From a virus (taxonomy: Duplodnaviria > Heunggongvirae > Uroviricota > Caudoviricetes): a stretch of DNA of 41,928 nt. The stretch lies in IMG/VR virus record IMGVR_UViG_2648501336_000002; one strand, written 5' to 3'. Position 1 is the stretch's first letter. Each line of letters opens with the position of its first letter. The position numbers and the translations under genes are program-made. The notes beneath the pieces are model-generated. The model was not told the DNA's origin, made no database searches, and worked only from the letters and a program-made list of their open reading frames with translations. Below, piece after piece: positions 1 through 39,862 of this stretch.

Positions 1-819
1 ATGCTTGTTAAATTCAGAATAGATCGAAATACAATTACAAATAACAGCACAATTTTAAACGCTAATGACAATCATTTAATTTACTCAAACCTAAATGACA
101 CAGATATAAACTCAAAAATATTTGACGCTGTAAATGGTGAAATATCAGCAAAGAAACTAGCCGACGAACTATTTCCTGAAAACGAACCACACATTTTTAT
201 ATCTCATAGTAGCAAAGACGTAAATGTAGCAATAAGTCTAGCAAACACTCTTTATGCAAAATATAAGATAACATCTTTCATTGACTCCCAACTTTGGGGA
301 CATATTGACCACGCACTAAAGGAAATGCATAATCGATACTGCAAGATCCCCGGCTCATCTTATTACCACTATGATAAATCTAATAACCTACTATCTCATA
401 TGCACGCCATACTAAGTATGGCTTTAATGAGAGTAATGGATAACGCTGACAGCGTTATATTTATCGAATCCGGCAACTCAATTTACCAATATATGGGAGA
501 TACTACCATTGCTCCCCAAGAAGCAATTGAAAAAACATCTGAAACATTATCTCCATGGATATCCTCTGAGGTGAATTTTGCAAATACCTTAAGATTGAAA
601 GGCCATAAAGATAGAGAACAACCATTAATGGAAAGCACAGATTCATACTCTTTAAACAAGAGTAATATTAAAGCAGACTCCTTACCCAAAATAATACATG
701 AAGTCAACTTAAGTAAATTCATAGAGATAGACAACAAAAAATTCAAAGAGTCTTTATCATTAAATGAAACAAATCCAATAAAAACTTTAGATATGATTTA
801 CCAAATATATGCTCAATAG
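1..819 (+). CDS. TIR-like domain protein (bacterial TIR / ThsB-like); accessory gene, 5' end possibly cut by window edge
   Basis: 272-aa ORF, visibly AT-rich; motif HIFISHSSKD resembles the FISH-type beta-A motif of bacterial TIR domains, with conserved Glu candidates downstream (FIESGN, WISSE). No search run. Confidence 0.45.
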   Translation: MLVKFRIDRNTITNNSTILNANDNHLIYSNLNDTDINSKIFDAVNGEISAKKLADELFPENEPHIFISHSSKDVNVAISLANTLYAKYKITSFIDSQLWGHIDHALKEMHNRYCKIPGSSYYHYDKSNNLLSHMHAILSMALMRVMDNADSVIFIESGNSIYQYMGDTTIAPQEAIEKTSETLSPWISSEVNFANTLRLKGHKDREQPLMESTDSYSLNKSNIKADSLPKIIHEVNLSKFIEIDNKKFKESLSLNETNPIKTLDMIYQIYAQ

Positions 820-23407: not shown

Positions 23408-23932
23408 TTACCGGGACTGTTCTATTTGTCGGACACCAGCCAACTGGTTATTCGCCTTCTCGATGGCCGCCAACAGTGGGTTAATCCACAGAACAGCCTG
23501 GCAATATGTCAACGTTCTGGTGGTAGTGGCACGATCACCGGCTGAGTCAATGTCCCCGGAATCGGCGTGCAATGCGCTGGCGCGTAAACGGTTCGCGTAG
23601 TTGAGCAACCCGACAGCAATATCAACAGGAACAGGGAAATCACAGTTCTTTTCACGGAGCAGAACCTCACGGTATTTGATGACTGTCTTCTCGTGACCGA
23701 TGTCGACCAGAGAATTTAATCGGCTTGCGTTTTCTGCTATCTGGTTAAAACGATTGAAGTTTAATGCCTGATTAGCTATCACTTTCCCTTGATATTCAGC
23801 TTCACCTTCCGCTTTATCAGCCCGCAACTTTTCTGCCTGATACTTGCTGTGGTAATGGTTTGCAGACCAGACGAGCGCCCCAAAGGCAGAGAAGAAAAAT
23901 GCCGCGATGACAATCTTATAAGTCAGCTTCAT
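23408..23932 (-). CDS. Rz-like spanin (inner-membrane subunit); embedded Rz1 not verified
   Basis: 174 aa with an N-terminal TM helix, directly after the endolysin. Confidence 0.55.
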   Translation of the reverse strand: MKLTYKIVIAAFFFSAFGALVWSANHYHSKYQAEKLRADKAEGEAEYQGKVIANQALNFNRFNQIAENASRLNSLVDIGHEKTVIKYREVLLREKNCDFPVPVDIAVGLLNYANRLRASALHADSGDIDSAGDRATTTRTLTYCQAVLWINPLLAAIEKANNQLAGVRQIEQSR

Positions 23933-24392
23933 TTACCACCCCACCAGCATCTTTAAACCTGGAAATCAGGTCACCGATTTTATGTTCATACTGACCGTAA
24001 CCTGCACCAGGTAACGACGCCCAGATATTGCTGCAACGGTCGATTGCCTGACGAATATCGCCACGGTCAATCATCGGTAAAGCGCCACGCTCTTTAATCT
24101 GCTGCAGCGCCACAGCGTCCTGACTTTCTGGCGAAAAATCTTTCAGGCCAAGCTGCTTACGGTAGGCATCCCACCAGCGTGAAAGAAGCTGATACCGTCC
24201 TGCGGCTGTTGATTTAAGCTTCGGGTTTAGCGTGACAAGTTTGCGAGGGTGATCGGAGTAATCAGTGAACAACTCACCTCCGACGATAACGTCATAACCG
24301 TGATTACGTGTCGGTTGTCGCCCGTTATCCGTTCCTTCTGACCATGCCACCATATCCAGGAAAGCTTTACGTTGGGAATTTAGTGTCTGCAT
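23916..24392 (-). CDS. R: Endolysin, lambda R-type lytic transglycosylase
   Basis: 158 aa nearly collinear with lambda R as recalled (QRKAFLDMVAWSEGTDNGRQ...GRYQLLSRWWDAYRKQLGLKDFSP). Confidence 0.85.
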   Translation of the reverse strand: MQTLNSQRKAFLDMVAWSEGTDNGRQPTRNHGYDVIVGGELFTDYSDHPRKLVTLNPKLKSTAAGRYQLLSRWWDAYRKQLGLKDFSPESQDAVALQQIKERGALPMIDRGDIRQAIDRCSNIWASLPGAGYGQYEHKIGDLISRFKDAGGVVNEADL

Positions 24393-24395
24393 GAA

Positions 24396-24755
24396 TTACT
24401 CCTTAGAGCCACCAAACTTGTTACCGATTACTCGCATTGCAGCCCCACGAATAGCATCCACACCGATCAGCCCAACACCACCACCAATGGCAACAGAAAG
24501 CGATTTAGGCCATCCAACATACTCAAGAGCGGATGCAAAGGTCAGCGTCAGAGCACCACAGAGCAAAATCTCAAGCGTTTTTCGTTTCCAGCCGCCGCCA
24601 CCGCCAAAATAGGCAATGCGCAAGCCAGCCATAACAATTGACATAACCACTGCGCCCAACGGCGTATCTCCACGCCACCAACTTTGTAAGAGTTCCAGTA
24701 AGTCAGGCCAGGAATGAGGAGCATTGTGCATTTTCATACTTCCCACCTCCGCCAT
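24396..24755 (-). CDS. Holin (S-like), possible dual-start motif
   Basis: 119 aa with TM segments and a charged C-terminus; MAEVGSMKM start region offers alternative Met codons; immediately upstream of the endolysin. Confidence 0.6.
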   Translation of the reverse strand: MAEVGSMKMHNAPHSWPDLLELLQSWWRGDTPLGAVVMSIVMAGLRIAYFGGGGGWKRKTLEILLCGALTLTFASALEYVGWPKSLSVAIGGGVGLIGVDAIRGAAMRVIGNKFGGSKE

Positions 24756-24837
24756 TACGGGGTGTTGTTGAAAGGCGGGCCCTGCGTATACGCCCGTAGG
24801 ATTGGGTTATGAGCCGTCCTTCGGTGGGCCCTGAATA

Positions 24838-24862
24838 CAAAAAAAGTTCGCCATAGCGAACC
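24838..24862 (-). terminator. Rho-independent terminator upstream of the lysis cassette (tR'-like)
   Basis: Minus strand: GTTCGC-TATG-GCGAAC followed by TTTTTTTG, about 85 nt upstream of the holin start and downstream of Q. Confidence 0.45.
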
Positions 24863-25140
24863 TTGTTAAATTTGTTAAAAAAGGAAGTTATTTAACATAA
24901 TGTATGTTATAGGAACCACACGATCACCGCTCGCAATAGATTTGCGATGAAAGGCCTATTTAATCAACTTAAGTGGTCCAGAATGACGAAATTCGAGTGA
25001 ATAAGAGGTGCATAAAAAAGGGCAAAAACTGCATAGCGTTTTTTCGCGACGAAAACCCTGTTTTATTAACTTTTACTGAGAATAGAGCATTAAAAAAGCC
25101 CCAATGATTTGGAGCTCTTCGTTGAGGTCAGAAATTCAAC

Positions 25141-25575
25141 TCATACCAGCGTAGCGCAGTTTTTGCGTAGCGCACTAATACTTTTTTCATCCCTTTGAAT
25201 TTCGACCTCAGGATCCATCTGAAGGCTCACACCCAGCATGCAGAGACACCCCTCAATGAATCCCTCTGCTACCTGCAACTGCTGGCGGATAAATCCTTCA
25301 GAACAGCGACGCCGCCGCCCTATCTCACGTTTGCTTAACCCGTAGACGTAGTACAGCATAATGACGTCCAGTTCCTCAGGCTTACGGACCTGCTGCAGCC
25401 GACAGACGCAAGCATCGATAATCAGGCCATCGTCGTCACAGCAACTCAGCCTGCCAGGCGAGCTGCTGACTACCAGCCCTTTAAATCCCGCCGCTATTGG
25501 AGCCCAGCTCACTGTGGTGTTGCTATCGGCAGCCCATCCACCCCAGCGCTCTAAAACCTGTTGAATATTACGCAT
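25141..25575 (-). CDS. Q: Late-gene antiterminator Q (phage 82/21-type)
   Basis: 144 aa; MRNIQQVLERWGGWAA...CCDDD...YYV pattern matches 82-type Q proteins; located before the late promoter region and lysis genes. Confidence 0.7.
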   Translation of the reverse strand: MRNIQQVLERWGGWAADSNTTVSWAPIAAGFKGLVVSSSPGRLSCCDDDGLIIDACVCRLQQVRKPEELDVIMLYYVYGLSKREIGRRRRCSEGFIRQQLQVAEGFIEGCLCMLGVSLQMDPEVEIQRDEKSISALRKNCATLV

Positions 25576-33203: not shown

Positions 33204-33833
33204 TCACTCAGGAATCTTAATCTTCCTCAATTCTTTATTTAGTTCACAGATCTTCTTCTTAGACGGGAAAGTATCATACATCCAAAAACCAACAGTCTCT
33301 AAAACTATTGTCATAACCATATACACAAGATAATTTAAAAGGCCTTCATTTTGCCCTATGGAAATAATGCAGATAATAGAAAAAAGGATAAACAGCACAA
33401 AACACAGAAAGGAAAACAGACGACTAATAATAAATAAAAAACCTGAAAAATTAACATTGATGAAAAACACTCCGTTATCTTTCTCTATATAATTCTGAAG
33501 CTTAATCACCTGATTTATATACTGTCTTTTTTCTAATCTATTGCAAATGTAAATAACATCACTTCGGTTATAAGAAGATTGCAATTTCAGCGCATCACGA
33601 ATAATTTTATCATTTATTCTTTTTTCTATGGCACTCTTATCCTCCTTATCCAGATAACGTTCATACTTAACTAAATATAAAATTAACTTCTTGACATATT
33701 TAGGCTCTTTATACTTATAATTAAAAATGATCTTTCTTATCCAGACTCCCATAACAATCAAACATGAAAAAATATATCCAGCTATTTTCTCCAGATGCTC
33801 TGTATGGTCAATCAAGTATTGGATCATATGCAT
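33204..33833 (-). CDS. AT-rich membrane protein (about 3 TM), antisense moron; candidate exclusion / abortive-infection protein
   Basis: 209 aa, strongly AT-rich, Lys/Ile/Tyr-rich; hydrophobic segments near the N-terminus and at about residues 125-170; opposite strand to the flanking replication genes. Confidence 0.5.
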   Translation of the reverse strand: MHMIQYLIDHTEHLEKIAGYIFSCLIVMGVWIRKIIFNYKYKEPKYVKKLILYLVKYERYLDKEDKSAIEKRINDKIIRDALKLQSSYNRSDVIYICNRLEKRQYINQVIKLQNYIEKDNGVFFINVNFSGFLFIISRLFSFLCFVLFILFSIICIISIGQNEGLLNYLVYMVMTIVLETVGFWMYDTFPSKKKICELNKELRKIKIPE

Positions 33834-36164: not shown

Positions 36165-36460
36165 TCGTTTACGTTGCCGGGCCGATGAGCGGTTACGAGC
36201 AATTTAACCGCCCGGCTTTTCATTCCGCAGCAAAGAGGCTAACGGACAAGGGATATGTTGTGCTTAACCCCGCAACTTTACCCAATGGTTTGACACAGGC
36301 TCAGTATATGGACATCTGCCTCGCAATGCTTCGCTGTGCCGATACGATTTATATGCTCAAAGAGTGGGAGTACTCTGCTGGCGCACGTGCAGAAAACGCG
36401 TTGGCAGAGAAACTGGAATTGAATGTGCTTTTTGAAGAGTGGGATTCAGATGGCCTATGA
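36161..36460 (+). CDS. Nucleoside 2-deoxyribosyltransferase-like protein (DUF4406-type)
   Basis: 99 aa beginning MIVYVAGPMSG. Confidence 0.4.
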   Translation: MIVYVAGPMSGYEQFNRPAFHSAAKRLTDKGYVVLNPATLPNGLTQAQYMDICLAMLRCADTIYMLKEWEYSAGARAENALAEKLELNVLFEEWDSDGL

Positions 36461-36719
36461 ACGTGAAAGCCTTATCGAAAAGCACCTCGTCGCTGAAGTG
36501 AAAAAAGCTGGCGGAGTGGCCTTTAAGTTTGTATCTCCCGGTCACCGCTCGGTACCGGATCGCATTGTCCTGCTACCAGGTGGTCGTATCGTTTTCGTTG
36601 AATGTAAATCTCCCGGCAAGCCACCACGGCCTGACCAATTGCGCGAACATGAACGTCTGCGAAAACTGGGCTTTACCGTAGTGGTGCTGGATAGCAAGAA
36701 CCTAGAGAGGATATTATAA
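36450..36719 (+). CDS. VRR-NUC domain nuclease
   Basis: Likely ATG at 36450 (MAYERESLIEKHL); PD-(D/E)XK-type motif PDRIVLL...VFVECK; precedes the SNF2 helicase as in typical VRR-NUC/SNF2 pairs. Confidence 0.6.
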   Translation: MAYERESLIEKHLVAEVKKAGGVAFKFVSPGHRSVPDRIVLLPGGRIVFVECKSPGKPPRPDQLREHERLRKLGFTVVVLDSKNLERIL

Positions 36720-36723
36720 AAAT

Positions 36724-37293
36724 TTAGTCAATGCCTTTTTGATTGAACTTCTGATTCTCCAGTATGCTTTGCAGCTCAATATTATCATTTGCAGCGGTTT
36801 GTTTATGCTCATGATATTTTTCTTGCGTATAATTTCTTTCTCTTAGTTTCTGTGCGTAATTATTAGAAATAATATCATGACGATCTTGTAATACTTGTTC
36901 AAGTTGACTTTTAAAGTCCTCTATCTTTTCATTAGAAATAACATTTTTGTACTTTTCAATATCACGGCGAAGTTCTTTTTCTTTCTTCTTATTAATGCTT
37001 AATAACTGTCGATTAACGCTACCTAAGGACCATTTAAACCCAATCGACTTTATCCAATGCGCCAGAAACATAGCGCAACTGGGAAGCATTAATAAAAGAA
37101 ATGGCTTTATTGTATTTAAATCAGAACCAATATACGGAAAACGACCGTCCCACGAGGACACCAGTAATGTTAAAAAACCAGTGATGCCACCAGCAGCAAC
37201 ATTAGAAATCAGAGGGACTTTTTCGTAGCTATCAGGTTTAGAAGCGCTACTCAAACGTCCCTCCTTTGACTGATCTTCCAGCACGAATGGCAT
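36724..37293 (-). CDS. Membrane protein with charged coiled-coil C-terminus (third gene of the antisense cassette)
   Basis: 189 aa, AT-rich; two hydrophobic helices (about residues 30-48 and 63-85) then a Lys/Glu-rich helical tail. Confidence 0.45.
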   Translation of the reverse strand: MPFVLEDQSKEGRLSSASKPDSYEKVPLISNVAAGGITGFLTLLVSSWDGRFPYIGSDLNTIKPFLLLMLPSCAMFLAHWIKSIGFKWSLGSVNRQLLSINKKKEKELRRDIEKYKNVISNEKIEDFKSQLEQVLQDRHDIISNNYAQKLRERNYTQEKYHEHKQTAANDNIELQSILENQKFNQKGID

Positions 37294-37495
37294 TCATTGC
37301 AATTTTGTAAAATTCATCATCAGAAGAGACATCAACGACATCGCGACGGACAACTCCTTCTGAGTCAACACATTCAAGAACAAGATGATGTTTAGGCATA
37401 AGCGCAAAGCGTAACCGGTCAAACCCCATCTTAAGAACCCAATATAGTACGGGAAGCAGGCTAAAAAAAGCCAGCCAAAAAGCAAAAGCAATCAT
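37247..37495 (-). CDS. Small membrane protein (second gene of the antisense cassette)
   Basis: 82 aa; N-terminal TM helix IAFAFWLAFFSLLPVLYWVL; overlaps the downstream gene by 47 nt. Confidence 0.4.
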   Translation of the reverse strand: MIAFAFWLAFFSLLPVLYWVLKMGFDRLRFALMPKHHLVLECVDSEGVVRRDVVDVSSDDEFYKIAMNAIRAGRSVKGGTFE

Positions 37496-37518
37496 AGCCC
37501 CCTCCCCATGTGAATCTA

Positions 37519-38397
37519 CTATAAGATGCCGTGTACTTTAACAACTATGTACGTTTTGTCCAGCGAATTCAAGTTCTCACGGACGAGCAAATCAACGCAG
37601 TAAGCATCACTAAAAACACCAGGTTCTCTTCCCGTACTAACACGTTGTAAGAACTCAGTATCTTCTATAGACACGCTGATTGTGTCATCGCCATAGTTGA
37701 CTCGCCAGCCTGTGTTTTTATCCTTATGAATAGTCAAAAATGTGATTAGAGCCTCTTCAATCACCCTTTCAGACAAGGACTGCACTACAGGAACGCGCCT
37801 ATATCTGAACGGTTCAATATTATCTTCGTGCACCTTAATCAGCTCAACCCCCTGTTGAGTTGAAATTTTAAGCGATTCGTATCCTTCCTTTTGCAAAGGA
37901 TTATGAATTAACTTCGATAAGGATTTGCGTATGCTTGGTGAGGCAAGTAAAGGCCGGAAATATGACGGGGCTATAATTTCCTCACCATCATCCATAACTA
38001 TTTTACAGTCTCCTTCCGCTGTTAAAGTCAACCGTTTTATTTGCCTACCATTGATCTGACGAATTAAGTCAATGAGAGTATTTCCTGCTGCGAGTGCAGT
38101 TGTACCTCCAAGCCCAATAATGCTTAATATATTCAAATGGTCAAGTGGATTTTGAATAACATCAATCAAATACTCAAATGAGCCTTCCTTAAAAGGCTCA
38201 ACCTCAACATTAATACACTCACTAGTGCCATTGACAACCAAATTAACTTCTTTAAGCAAGTTGTTTAGTCCATTCAATGACTCAGTTAAAACATCCAAAT
38301 CTATTTTATGATCTGCTAGTGCGGGACCATCATATTTAACAACTAATTTATCAGTAATATTTTCTTCTTGCTGGACATCTGTATAAGCTGAGGTCAT
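37519..38397 (-). CDS. Hypothetical soluble protein (first gene of the antisense cassette)
   Basis: 292 aa, AT-rich, no recognisable catalytic motif; AAGGAA Shine-Dalgarno 7 nt upstream of the ATG at 38397. Confidence 0.5.
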   Translation of the reverse strand: MTSAYTDVQQEENITDKLVVKYDGPALADHKIDLDVLTESLNGLNNLLKEVNLVVNGTSECINVEVEPFKEGSFEYLIDVIQNPLDHLNILSIIGLGGTTALAAGNTLIDLIRQINGRQIKRLTLTAEGDCKIVMDDGEEIIAPSYFRPLLASPSIRKSLSKLIHNPLQKEGYESLKISTQQGVELIKVHEDNIEPFRYRRVPVVQSLSERVIEEALITFLTIHKDKNTGWRVNYGDDTISVSIEDTEFLQRVSTGREPGVFSDAYCVDLLVRENLNSLDKTYIVVKVHGIL

Positions 38398-38464
38398 AAC
38401 TGTTCCTTTCGAAATAAATAATTAAGCTATTACTACATAAGTTCATTCATGGAGATACAATACC

Positions 38465-39862
38465 ATGGACTATGCTATATTTTCACCTCACCCCTACCAA
38501 GATCTCATCATCAATCATCAAATCGACATTATGCGCTGCAACATCTGGGCAGGTATGGGAATGGGTAAAACCGTGGCAACGCTCACTGCGCTGGAAGATC
38601 TTTTTATGGCAGGGGCAGAAACACGCCCCGCACTGGTCCTCGCGCCGCTACGTGTTGCAGCAAACACCTGGCCGGATGAAGCAGTGAAGTGGGGGCATTT
38701 GCGCAATATCGAGGTGCAGCCGATTGTTGGTAATGCCAAAGCGCGCTCTACGGCGCTGGCGAACAGCAACGCAAGCGTGTTCACCATCAACTACGATAAC
38801 CTTGTCTGGCTGGTTGAAGAATTGGGAGAACGATGGCCGTTCGGTATTGTCATTCCAGATGAAAGCACCCGGCTAAAATCCTTCCGGCTGCGAGGTGGTG
38901 GTAAGCGCGCGGCGGCACTGGGCAAAGTGGCGCATAAGTATGTCCGGCGCTGGATAAATCTCACCGGTACGCCAGCACCGAACGGCCTGGTAGATTTGTG
39001 GGGACAATCGTGGTTTGTGGACCAAGGGCAACGTCTCGGGCGCACTTACGGTGCGTTTACCTCACGCTGGTTCAACTCGATACAGTTTCCGGGACAGAGC
39101 TGGACTAAACTGGAGCCTTTTGCTCACTCACAGGGTGAAATACAGCGAGCATTAGCCGATGTGACCCTCTCGCTAGATGCGGCCGACTGGTTCGATATCA
39201 AAGACCCCATCCATAACGTAATCCGCGTGGATATGCCGCCGAAGGCCCGTCAGCAGTATCGTGAAATGGAAAAGGAAATGTTCCTCGAGCTGAATGGCGA
39301 AGGCATCGAAGCACCGAACGCCGCGGCAAAGACACTGAAGTGTCTTCAAATCGCCAGTGGCGCAGTATACACAGACGACACCGGAAGTTGGTCAGAACTG
39401 CATGACACCAAACTACAGGCGCTGGACAGCATACTGACCGAAGCAGCTGGCGCACCTGTGCTGGTTGCTTATCACTGGAAACACGATCTTGAACGCTTGC
39501 TTAAAGCATTCCCTCGCGGTCGTCACCTCGACCAGGATCCACAGACACTGCGCGACTGGAATTCCGGAAAGATTCCTGTTCTCTTTGCACACCCAGCCAG
39601 CGCGGGCCACGGCCTGAACATGCAGGACGGCGGAAATATACTGGTATTTTTCTCACACTGGTGGGACCTGGAGCAATATCAGCAAATTATTGAACGTATC
39701 GGCCCCACCAGGCAGATACAGGCCGGACACAATCGTCCGGTATTTATTCACCACATTATTGCTGCCGACACTATGGACGAAATGGTGATGGAGCGGCGCA
39801 ACTCAAAACGAACAGTGCAGGACATCCTGCTCGATGCCATGAAAAAGAGAGGTATAGCATGA
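38465..39862 (+). CDS. SNF2-family helicase
   Basis: 465 aa; motif I GMGKT, motif II IPDESTR. Confidence 0.8.
   Translation: MDYAIFSPHPYQDLIINHQIDIMRCNIWAGMGMGKTVATLTALEDLFMAGAETRPALVLAPLRVAANTWPDEAVKWGHLRNIEVQPIVGNAKARSTALANSNASVFTINYDNLVWLVEELGERWPFGIVIPDESTRLKSFRLRGGGKRAAALGKVAHKYVRRWINLTGTPAPNGLVDLWGQSWFVDQGQRLGRTYGAFTSRWFNSIQFPGQSWTKLEPFAHSQGEIQRALADVTLSLDAADWFDIKDPIHNVIRVDMPPKARQQYREMEKEMFLELNGEGIEAPNAAAKTLKCLQIASGAVYTDDTGSWSELHDTKLQALDSILTEAAGAPVLVAYHWKHDLERLLKAFPRGRHLDQDPQTLRDWNSGKIPVLFAHPASAGHGLNMQDGGNILVFFSHWWDLEQYQQIIERIGPTRQIQAGHNRPVFIHHIIAADTMDEMVMERRNSKRTVQDILLDAMKKRGIA

Follow-up and report, generated by a model that had tools for sequence, protein, structure and literature searches.

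What is the function of three AT-rich, minus-strand genes that interrupt the plus-strand replication operon of an Escherichia coli prophage? The question is raised by a stretch of viral DNA of 41,928 nucleotides (IMG/VR record IMGVR_UViG_2648501336_000002), here called the window, an E. coli prophage whose insertion site lies between yfhH and yfhL. An earlier interpretation made from the DNA letters (the sequence-only reading) had nominated the three genes, designated A, B and C below, as an undescribed anti-phage system. We conclude, with a probability of roughly 0.6, that the cassette is indeed a prophage anti-phage module, namely a three-gene gamma-proteobacterial variant of the gp29/gp30-type defence of mycobacteriophage MichelleMyBell. 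Defence is the best-supported interpretation, and the word "undescribed" has to be given up, because A belongs to the known gp29 family. Our conclusion draws on the observed homology to gp29, gene architecture, portability, hotspot location and purifying selection of the cassette, on the accessory contexts of the family, and on the flags raised by PADLOC and DefensePredictor. The cassette consists of the following genes.

37519..38397, minus strand: gene A, 292 amino acids (aa), soluble protein of the gp29 / PDC-S42 / "LAPAL" family
37247..37495, minus strand: gene B, 82 aa, single-pass inner-membrane protein, phrog_15510
36724..37254, minus strand: gene C, 176 aa, inner-membrane protein with a TTG start, phrog_15878

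The connection to MichelleMyBell came from two sources. A Vibrio homolog of A bears the depositor's note "MMB_gp29_gp30__gp29", and the fold matches of A in BFVD, all of them uncharacterised proteins, include a protein of Mycobacterium phage Pipsqueaks. When searched with hmmsearch, MichelleMyBell gp29 scored E = 9.2e-16 against a broad family profile and, end to end, 7.9e-11 against a profile containing the window's A. Direct comparison by BLASTP aligned A and gp29 over 307 columns with 26% identity (E = 6e-12); the best of 500 shuffled controls reached 5.6 bits, as against 47.5 and 63.6 bits for the real pair. The motifs GSF, WR and D-x-x-F are common to both proteins. As judged by these alignments, A is a full-length, remote homolog of MichelleMyBell gp29. 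The start of gp30 overlaps the end of gp29, and its 67-aa product has two transmembrane (TM) helices; no homology of gp30 to B or C was detectable with profiles of the two (E > 1e4).

According to secondary sources, the MichelleMyBell prophage cuts the plating efficiency of phage Tweety by 4-5 logs; Tweety, for its part, has a tunable counter-defence, gp54 (PMC8549241). The defence is described, again in a secondary source, as abortive-infection-like, with adsorption and DNA injection proceeding (PMC6426606), and gp29 is reported, likewise secondarily, to be toxic. DefenseFinder-based surveys found the gp29/gp30 system in Actinobacteria only. One survey paper labels the DefenseFinder gp29-gp30 system a "(p)ppGpp synthetase"; MichelleMyBell gp29 has no RelA/SpoT domain, and we reject the label for this protein. 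The label does suit Phrann gp29, which is unrelated.

MichelleMyBell, Pipsqueaks and Xeno differ from one another in the same variable slot, which in phages of this type is lysogeny-associated and lies near integrase or immunity genes. Pipsqueaks itself encodes a shortened relative: its gp31 (L047, KU935730.1, 4250-4967) is identical to the C-terminal 184 residues of gp29 and lacks the N-terminal domain and the hydrophobic segment, as a natural truncation or through an alternative start, with the gp30-like gp32 retained. This protein could show which domains of gp29 are needed for defence.

The sequence-only reading had seen no similarity to any defence family it could name. For A this did not hold up, as the protein is linked to gp29, to a PADLOC candidate and to a machine-learning list of predicted defence genes. 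PADLOC, which had been proposed as a check, assigned A to PDC-S42 (model PDLC05015, E = 6.1e-40, residues 17-288 against 5-286 of the 302-position profile) and gave no match for B or C. PDC denotes a set of 145 candidates, none of them tested, that were picked out by their embedding in BREX, DISARM or type I restriction-modification (R-M) loci ("guilt-by-embedding"; Payne et al. 2024 preprint). Within this set PDC-S42 is, by definition, an untested candidate made up of one gene. The A-B-C branch does not conform to this single-gene definition, since B and C always follow A. The RefSeq protein WP_000199789.1, identical to A, is listed in Table S10 of DefensePredictor as a "Predicted novel defense gene" with a mean log-odds of 6.25, the strict cutoff being 4. 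A also scores 193.7 bits with the NCBIfam model NF053583 ("LAPAL motif-containing putative phage structural protein"), whose cutoff is 60. Distant members have the literal LAPAL motif (DLAPALLA); in the window's A, DVLTESL takes its place. A match to Pfam DUF7946 (PF25678), confined to the N-terminal 60 residues, stays below the gathering threshold (22.3 versus 27 bits), and several close homologs of A carry a precomputed PF25678 tag. No mention of PDC-S42, DUF7946, PF25678, NF053583, "LAPAL motif" or the three RefSeq accessions was found in the main texts of the literature.

A profile search showed how large this family is: 4,423 clusters at 50% identity (865 of them below 1e-30), matched over their full length and nearly all 280-320 aa long. 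Its members span Pseudomonas, Desulfovibrio, Anaerolineae and bacteria of the candidate phyla radiation, and all are named "hypothetical". We examined the contexts of five distant members. One adjoins BrxR and an SNF2/NOV_C protein in a P. aeruginosa island; in a Halopseudomonas prophage another comes immediately after a CI-type repressor, where rexAB would be; a third has a small S24 peptidase on one side and a DnaE2-like polymerase on the other; the fourth is an orphan; and the fifth sits between a G-like gene and a protease/scaffold gene in the head module of a Mu-like prophage. This Mu-like G/I position, which in such phages is an accessory, anti-CRISPR locus rather than a core structural slot, probably explains the "structural protein" in the NCBI name. 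None of the five homologs had B- or C-like TM open reading frames (ORFs) downstream and, on this comparison of gene neighbourhoods, the core function of the system is assigned to A. A further distant homolog, 28% identical to the window's A, has a Pro-rich partner with a weak AbiEi-like winged helix-turn-helix and stands beside a RelB/YafQ pair.

A Peptidase_S24 gene (LexA/CI/UmuD-type) neighbours three of the five distant homologs (L038, L039, L040). In Alkalidesulfovibrio the small S24 peptidase, the A homolog and the DnaE2-like polymerase lie on one strand, an arrangement that resembles an SOS mutagenesis cassette. These neighbours may reflect a link to SOS or prophage induction, or a coincidence.

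In its own branch, A is never without its partners, small membrane-protein genes that are tightly or translationally coupled to it. In 28 of 28 fetched loci with an A at least 48% identical, which amount to about a dozen distinct sequence variants, B and C lie directly downstream in the same order. A seeming exception (L017) proved to be a missed gene call, and in one locus (L015) C is truncated, with an IS66 element just downstream. The cassette occurs in the same prophage type in E. coli, Salmonella and Enterobacter, next to the integrase in lambdoid prophages of E. coli, Klebsiella and Citrobacter, and in a Pantoea prophage and a Photobacterium locus. An Aeromonas island that carries it has Mob_Pre and D5-primase genes, and is bordered on the other side by a type I R-M/Fic/Mrr_N cluster in one genome and by type VI secretion system genes in another. 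The same order recurs beside the integrase of a 14-kb, non-tailed, PM2-like Vibrio virus (Vinavirales), where A is 43% identical, B is recognised by its profile (E = 6e-17) and C shows weak similarity and the same architecture. Between E. coli and Aeromonas, identity falls from 50% for A to 37% for B and 22% for C, a decay of conservation in the order A > B > C. A peptide-pattern scan of genome contigs, whose patterns were too specific, reached close relatives only. The co-conservation of the trio in unrelated mobile elements that had been expected of an anti-phage module was therefore found, in lambdoid prophages, in the Aeromonas island and in the PM2-like virus alike. The cassette has the character of an accessory module with clear boundaries and horizontal mobility, the trio passing as a unit among unrelated viruses and islands.

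How does this module sit in the E. coli prophage? The surrounding elements are listed below.

36720..38485, no strand: variable cargo slot, delimited by blastn breakpoints against sister prophages with other cargo
38398..38464, minus strand: AT-rich gap of 67 bp from gene A to the divergent helicase gene, presumed promoter region
36450..36719, plus strand: left flank, VRR-NUC / PDDEXK nuclease gene (RefSeq annotation), outside the cassette
38465..39862, plus strand: right flank, SNF2-type helicase gene (Pfam SNF2-rel_dom, DEAD and Helicase_C; RefSeq), outside the cassette

The prophage has a module of DNA polymerase, DUF4406, VRR-NUC, SNF2 helicase and integrase genes, and a CI-like repressor. 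VRR-NUC and helicase flanks of this kind are present in 153 of 5,426 complete E. coli genomes, 17 of which contain the cassette; a search with the cassette alone returned 19 genomes, these 17 and two with another context. Blastn against sister prophages, whose flanks are 95-98% identical, placed the breakpoints at 36715-36722 on the left and 38479-38492 on the right, so that homology stops at the VRR-NUC stop codon and restarts 14-27 nt into the helicase ORF. What lies between is wholly unrelated from one sister prophage to another: a 236-aa unknown protein, a pair of unknown proteins, an Arc/Arc/Rha set or a TIR-like protein (L002-L005). Because the flanks are conserved while the occupants differ, the slot is a cargo hotspot.

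The TIR-like occupant belongs to phage vB_EcoM-606R2 (L005, ON470579.1), where a small TIR-like protein takes the exact place of A-B-C (TIR genes at 310-1071 and 1801-2292). In the same phage a TIR-domain protein between the polymerase and nuclease genes matches PADLOC PDC-S35 (E = 1e-108; Pfam CAP12-PCTIR_TIR). The cassette shares its cargo slots with other genes of defence type in sister phages.

All three minus-strand ORFs and the 67-bp gap were present as the sequence-only reading had given them, and the same holds for the contrast in base composition: the cassette has 38.4% GC (A 38.8, B 42.6, C 34.8), far below the 53.0% and 52.5% of the flanking replication genes. For gene C, the ORF and its end at 36724 stood but the start probably did not. 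It most likely lies at the TTG at 37254 (176 aa) rather than at the ATG at 37293 (189 aa), because an AGGAGG Shine-Dalgarno sequence is placed about 5 nt upstream of the TTG, the RefSeq product has 176 aa, the PHROG profile alignment to the long form begins at residue 14, and the orthologs begin at the equivalent position. With this start, C begins ahead of the gene B stop, in an overlap of 8 nt. The strong Shine-Dalgarno sequence ascribed to the first gene is a moderate one (AAAGGA), the strong ones being those of B (GGAGG) and C (AGGAGG). Relative to an ortholog set 85-92% identical, the ratio of nonsynonymous to synonymous substitution (dN/dS) was 0.056 for A, 0.12 for B and 0.057 for C. 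A, B and C are thus real genes, all under purifying selection.

A promoter for gene A had been placed in the 67-bp gap. We could not confirm it: no sigma-70-like match of at least 9/12 occurs there, and the sequence upstream of A is unconserved, varying between insertion contexts, so that no promoter travelling with the cassette was found.

The predicted character of the products, a soluble protein followed by two small membrane proteins, was upheld by hydropathy: A has no TM segment, B has one and C has two. The AlphaFold2 (AF2) model of A (mean predicted local distance difference test, pLDDT, 77.9; predicted template modelling score, pTM, 0.60) comprises an N-terminal beta-alpha-beta-beta unit, a Gly-rich hydrophobic stretch, a middle alpha/beta domain and a C-terminal barrel (about residues 205-292). 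The barrel is modelled with the strand order beta1-beta2-beta3-alpha-beta4-beta5 and looks like a possible oligonucleotide/oligosaccharide-binding (OB) fold, and an invariant Trp-Arg pair, W231 and R232, stands at the start of its second modelled strand. The family-invariant residues are mostly Gly, Leu, Arg, Trp, Phe and Asp, and no catalytic signature or recognisable catalytic domain was evident in A. Foldseek, also proposed earlier, returned nothing at E < 1e-3 against the PDB. By sequence, with single sequences or profiles, no relatives of solved structure were found for A, B or C.

The Gly-rich hydrophobic segment of A (residues ~88-115; window 38056-38136) is modelled with low confidence, and its position is kept throughout the family; in the wider family it is followed by a basic amphipathic motif (…KWLKGRKI…). 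As a TM helix the segment is borderline only, with a median Kyte-Doolittle maximum of 1.62 in the family and 1.52 in the A-B-C branch, and we did not adopt that assignment. TM-like hydropathy (at least 1.6) is reached in 53% of distant members as opposed to 9% of the A-B-C branch, a weak hint that the membrane partners B and C may replace an intrinsic membrane-active element of A. The segment might be a buried core, serve oligomerisation or be capable of latent membrane insertion.

Protein B has one N-terminal TM helix (residues ~1-23) and a C-terminal domain of about 55 aa, and its orthologs share the motif VDVS-DDEFY-x-AM-x-AIR. In C, two TM helices precede a long, charged, helical, coiled-coil-like tail. 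Its AF2 model (pLDDT 66) is all-helical (H13-33, H45-100, H107-151, H158-172) and forms a TM hairpin whose second helix runs on into a long cytoplasmic helical hairpin. The positive-inside rule predicts that both the C-terminal domain of B and the tail of C face the cytoplasm. Neither protein has relatives in Pfam, PADLOC, NCBIfam or the PDB by sequence or profile, and their PHROG families are of unknown function. The profile search for C yielded 27 homologs, all inside the A-B-C branch and with no Pfam domain; scattered Pfam matches of C orthologs, followed up as possible wider relatives, were noise. B and C are specific to a narrow gamma-proteobacterial branch, where they have been added to the A core, just as mycobacteriophages have added gp30.

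How might such a module act? A could be the cytoplasmic core, a sensor and probably also the toxic effector, as suggested by the solitary position of most family members and by the reported toxicity of gp29. Its OB-like barrel with W231 and R232 would recognise a phage-derived ligand, for example nucleic acid or a phage protein. The cytoplasmic domains of B and C may anchor or restrain A at the inner membrane until infection releases or activates the complex, which would lead to growth arrest or membrane failure, that is, to abortive infection after DNA entry. An abortive outcome of this kind is reported for the MichelleMyBell system. The final harm to the cell might be done by A itself or by the membrane proteins B and C.

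Several points weigh against defence as the function of the cassette. No phenotype is on record for the cassette or any proteobacterial member of the family, PDC-S42 and the DefensePredictor list are predictions only, and WP_000199789.1 is absent from the DefensePredictor tables of tested and validated units (S6-S8). The phenotype of gp29/gp30 is known to us from secondary sources, and the homology of A to gp29 is remote at 26% identity. As gp30 is unlike B and C in sequence, the membrane partners may act differently. Neither the scan of the gap nor the comparison across contexts revealed a promoter for expression in the lysogen. Accessory slots of phages also hold anti-defence and other genes.

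These points leave room for other functions, of which exclusion of superinfecting phages at the envelope, although unlikely, fares best. B and C would join with A in keeping the genomes of incoming phages out of the cell, and the OB-like domain of A might bind the entering DNA. P22 SieA, T4 Imm/Sp and Charlie gp32 are examples of envelope exclusion, and Kiwa, which pairs a sensor in the membrane with a DNA-binding effector in the cytoplasm, is similar in polarity. Two inner-membrane proteins with cytoplasmic domains, the barrel in A and the prophage location are what such a system might look like, and the Cluster N mycobacteriophages hold the membrane-protein exclusion gene Charlie gp32 in the very slot of gp29/gp30. 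The homologous MichelleMyBell system, however, is described as abortive-infection-like, with phages still adsorbing and injecting their DNA. Most family members have no membrane partner, so the envelope cannot be needed for the core activity, and PADLOC found no match to Kiwa, Sie or Imm models.

We consider it a little less probable still that the cassette lacks an anti-phage role and serves addiction, by toxin-antitoxin-like stabilisation, or lysogenic conversion, A being a toxin restrained by B and C. The reported toxicity of gp29, the tight coupling of the genes and their residence on mobile elements are in keeping with this, as are the RelB/YafQ pair and the AbiEi-like partner seen with one distant homolog. 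Against it, the MichelleMyBell prophage protects by 4-5 logs against a heterotypic phage that has a dedicated counter-defence, and the family is embedded in R-M, BREX or DISARM loci, albeit by construction of the PDC set. Moreover, many modules of the toxin-antitoxin kind are themselves defence systems, so that this alternative overlaps with the anti-phage explanation.

There is only a slim chance that the module provides counter-defence or competes with other phages on behalf of the phage in lytic growth rather than of the lysogen. Such genes do share phage accessory slots with defence genes, and one homolog occupies the Mu-like G/I locus. Yet in two phage backbones that are unrelated, the cassette runs against the lytic operons beside it, which fits independent expression in the lysogen; the family also populates non-phage islands and R-M-embedded chromosomal positions; and the homologous gp29/gp30 acts from the prophage.

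Finally, we consider it very unlikely that A is a structural or morphogenesis protein with B and C as assembly or lysis helpers of holin or spanin type, for, notwithstanding the name of NF053583 and the homolog inside a Mu-like head module, the cassette is dispensable, 136 of 153 prophages lacking it although they are otherwise 95-98% identical, it lies antisense in a replication operon or adjacent to integrases, its carriers include a PM2-like virus that has no tail and islands that are not phages, and the PHROG family of A, like those of B and C, has no structural or lysis label. The holin and spanin identities for B and C, which the sequence-only reading had raised as its own alternative, were likewise not borne out and are rejected, as the prophage has its own, separate lysis cassette (Q-like antiterminator, holin, endolysin and Rz-like spanin genes at 23408-25575; holin, endolysin and Rz at 23408-24755) and the PHROG families of both proteins are of unknown function. 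The label "putative phage structural protein" itself looks misleading.

To return to the anti-phage module, its core gene is not categorically new, as it already figures in two defence catalogues and one machine-learning list. What is new here are the membrane partners B and C, the three-gene organisation, and the connection between MichelleMyBell gp29, PDC-S42 and "LAPAL", which joins three labels (DefenseFinder MMB_gp29, PADLOC PDC-S42, NCBIfam "LAPAL") into one family of more than 4,000 clusters and extends a system surveyed as exclusively actinobacterial to E. coli and a large pan-bacterial family. To our knowledge, and as far as the searchable literature goes, no member outside MichelleMyBell has been tested experimentally. 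The gp29/gp30 pair has been in defence catalogues since 2017 without a mechanism, and the E. coli version makes this unsolved mechanism testable in the best host for phage genetics. Should the cassette prove inactive, it would be a caution against guilt-by-association and machine-learning predictions of defence.

A broader proposal, which we put forward tentatively and would not yet bet on, is that gp29, PDC-S42 and "LAPAL" form one very large pan-bacterial family of enzyme-less OB-fold defence proteins, reaching from the candidate phyla radiation to the Actinobacteria, with a new mechanism, in which ligand sensing by the OB domain would be coupled to the latent Gly-rich segment or to membrane partners. 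The E. coli A-B-C cassette would then be its first member amenable to genetics and would bring in two membrane components that had not been described before.

Further candidate cargo lies elsewhere in the prophage. At its other end, an AT-rich (33% GC), complete 272-aa ORF (window 1-819, plus strand) matches ThsB in PADLOC (E = 7.7e-43) and has no Pfam match; ThsB is the TIR-like component of Thoeris. In E. coli KOr019 the ThsB-like gene is preceded by hypothetical genes of 152 and 215 aa and then by yfhH. No gene of the size of ThsA stands beside the window's ORF, which may therefore be an orphan or a variant TIR system. The adjoining tail-fibre end (window ~820-2050; L048 / L049) has a Pin-type invertase with alternative tail-fibre and assembly genes and differs among strains with the same A-B-C cassette, so that this end is mosaic, with variable cargo beyond the tail fibres. 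Between the DUF2815 and DNA polymerase genes, an AT-rich antisense gene (33204-33833, minus strand; 209 aa, phrog_10579) has no Pfam or PADLOC match; like the cassette it forms a minus-strand island in the plus-strand replication operon, and it may mark another cargo slot.

Among known systems, the cassette compares most closely with MichelleMyBell gp29/gp30 (DefenseFinder "MMB_gp29_gp30"). In both, the gene of a gp29-family cytoplasmic protein is closely coupled to, or overlaps, a gene just downstream for a small membrane protein, and both are carried by temperate phages in a slot of variable cargo close to integrase or immunity genes. They differ in that the cassette has two partners, B with one TM helix and a soluble domain and C with two TM helices and a coiled coil, and in the phylum of the host, Proteobacteria rather than Actinobacteria. 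With PDC-S42 the cassette shares the family of about 300-aa proteins, A matching the model over its whole length. The window, unlike PDC-S42, has a three-gene operon, in which B and C are the branch-specific part.

With lambda RexA/RexB, Sbash gp30/31 and CarolAnn gp43/44 the cassette has in common the combination of a prophage-encoded cytoplasmic protein and one or more membrane proteins. Membership of the Rex family is rejected, since A, B and C have no RexA (DUF4747) or RexB match at E <= 1 in Pfam or PADLOC. The sequence-only reading was therefore right on both counts when it saw RexAB-like logic and no similarity to Rex. The likeness to lambda Rex extends to the distant member of the A family that directly follows a CI-type repressor, as rexAB does, and to the abortive outcome reported for the homologous MichelleMyBell system. 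Unlike Rex, however, the cassette combines membrane partners of one and two TM helices, instead of the four of the RexB type, with a core protein that ends in an OB-like domain.

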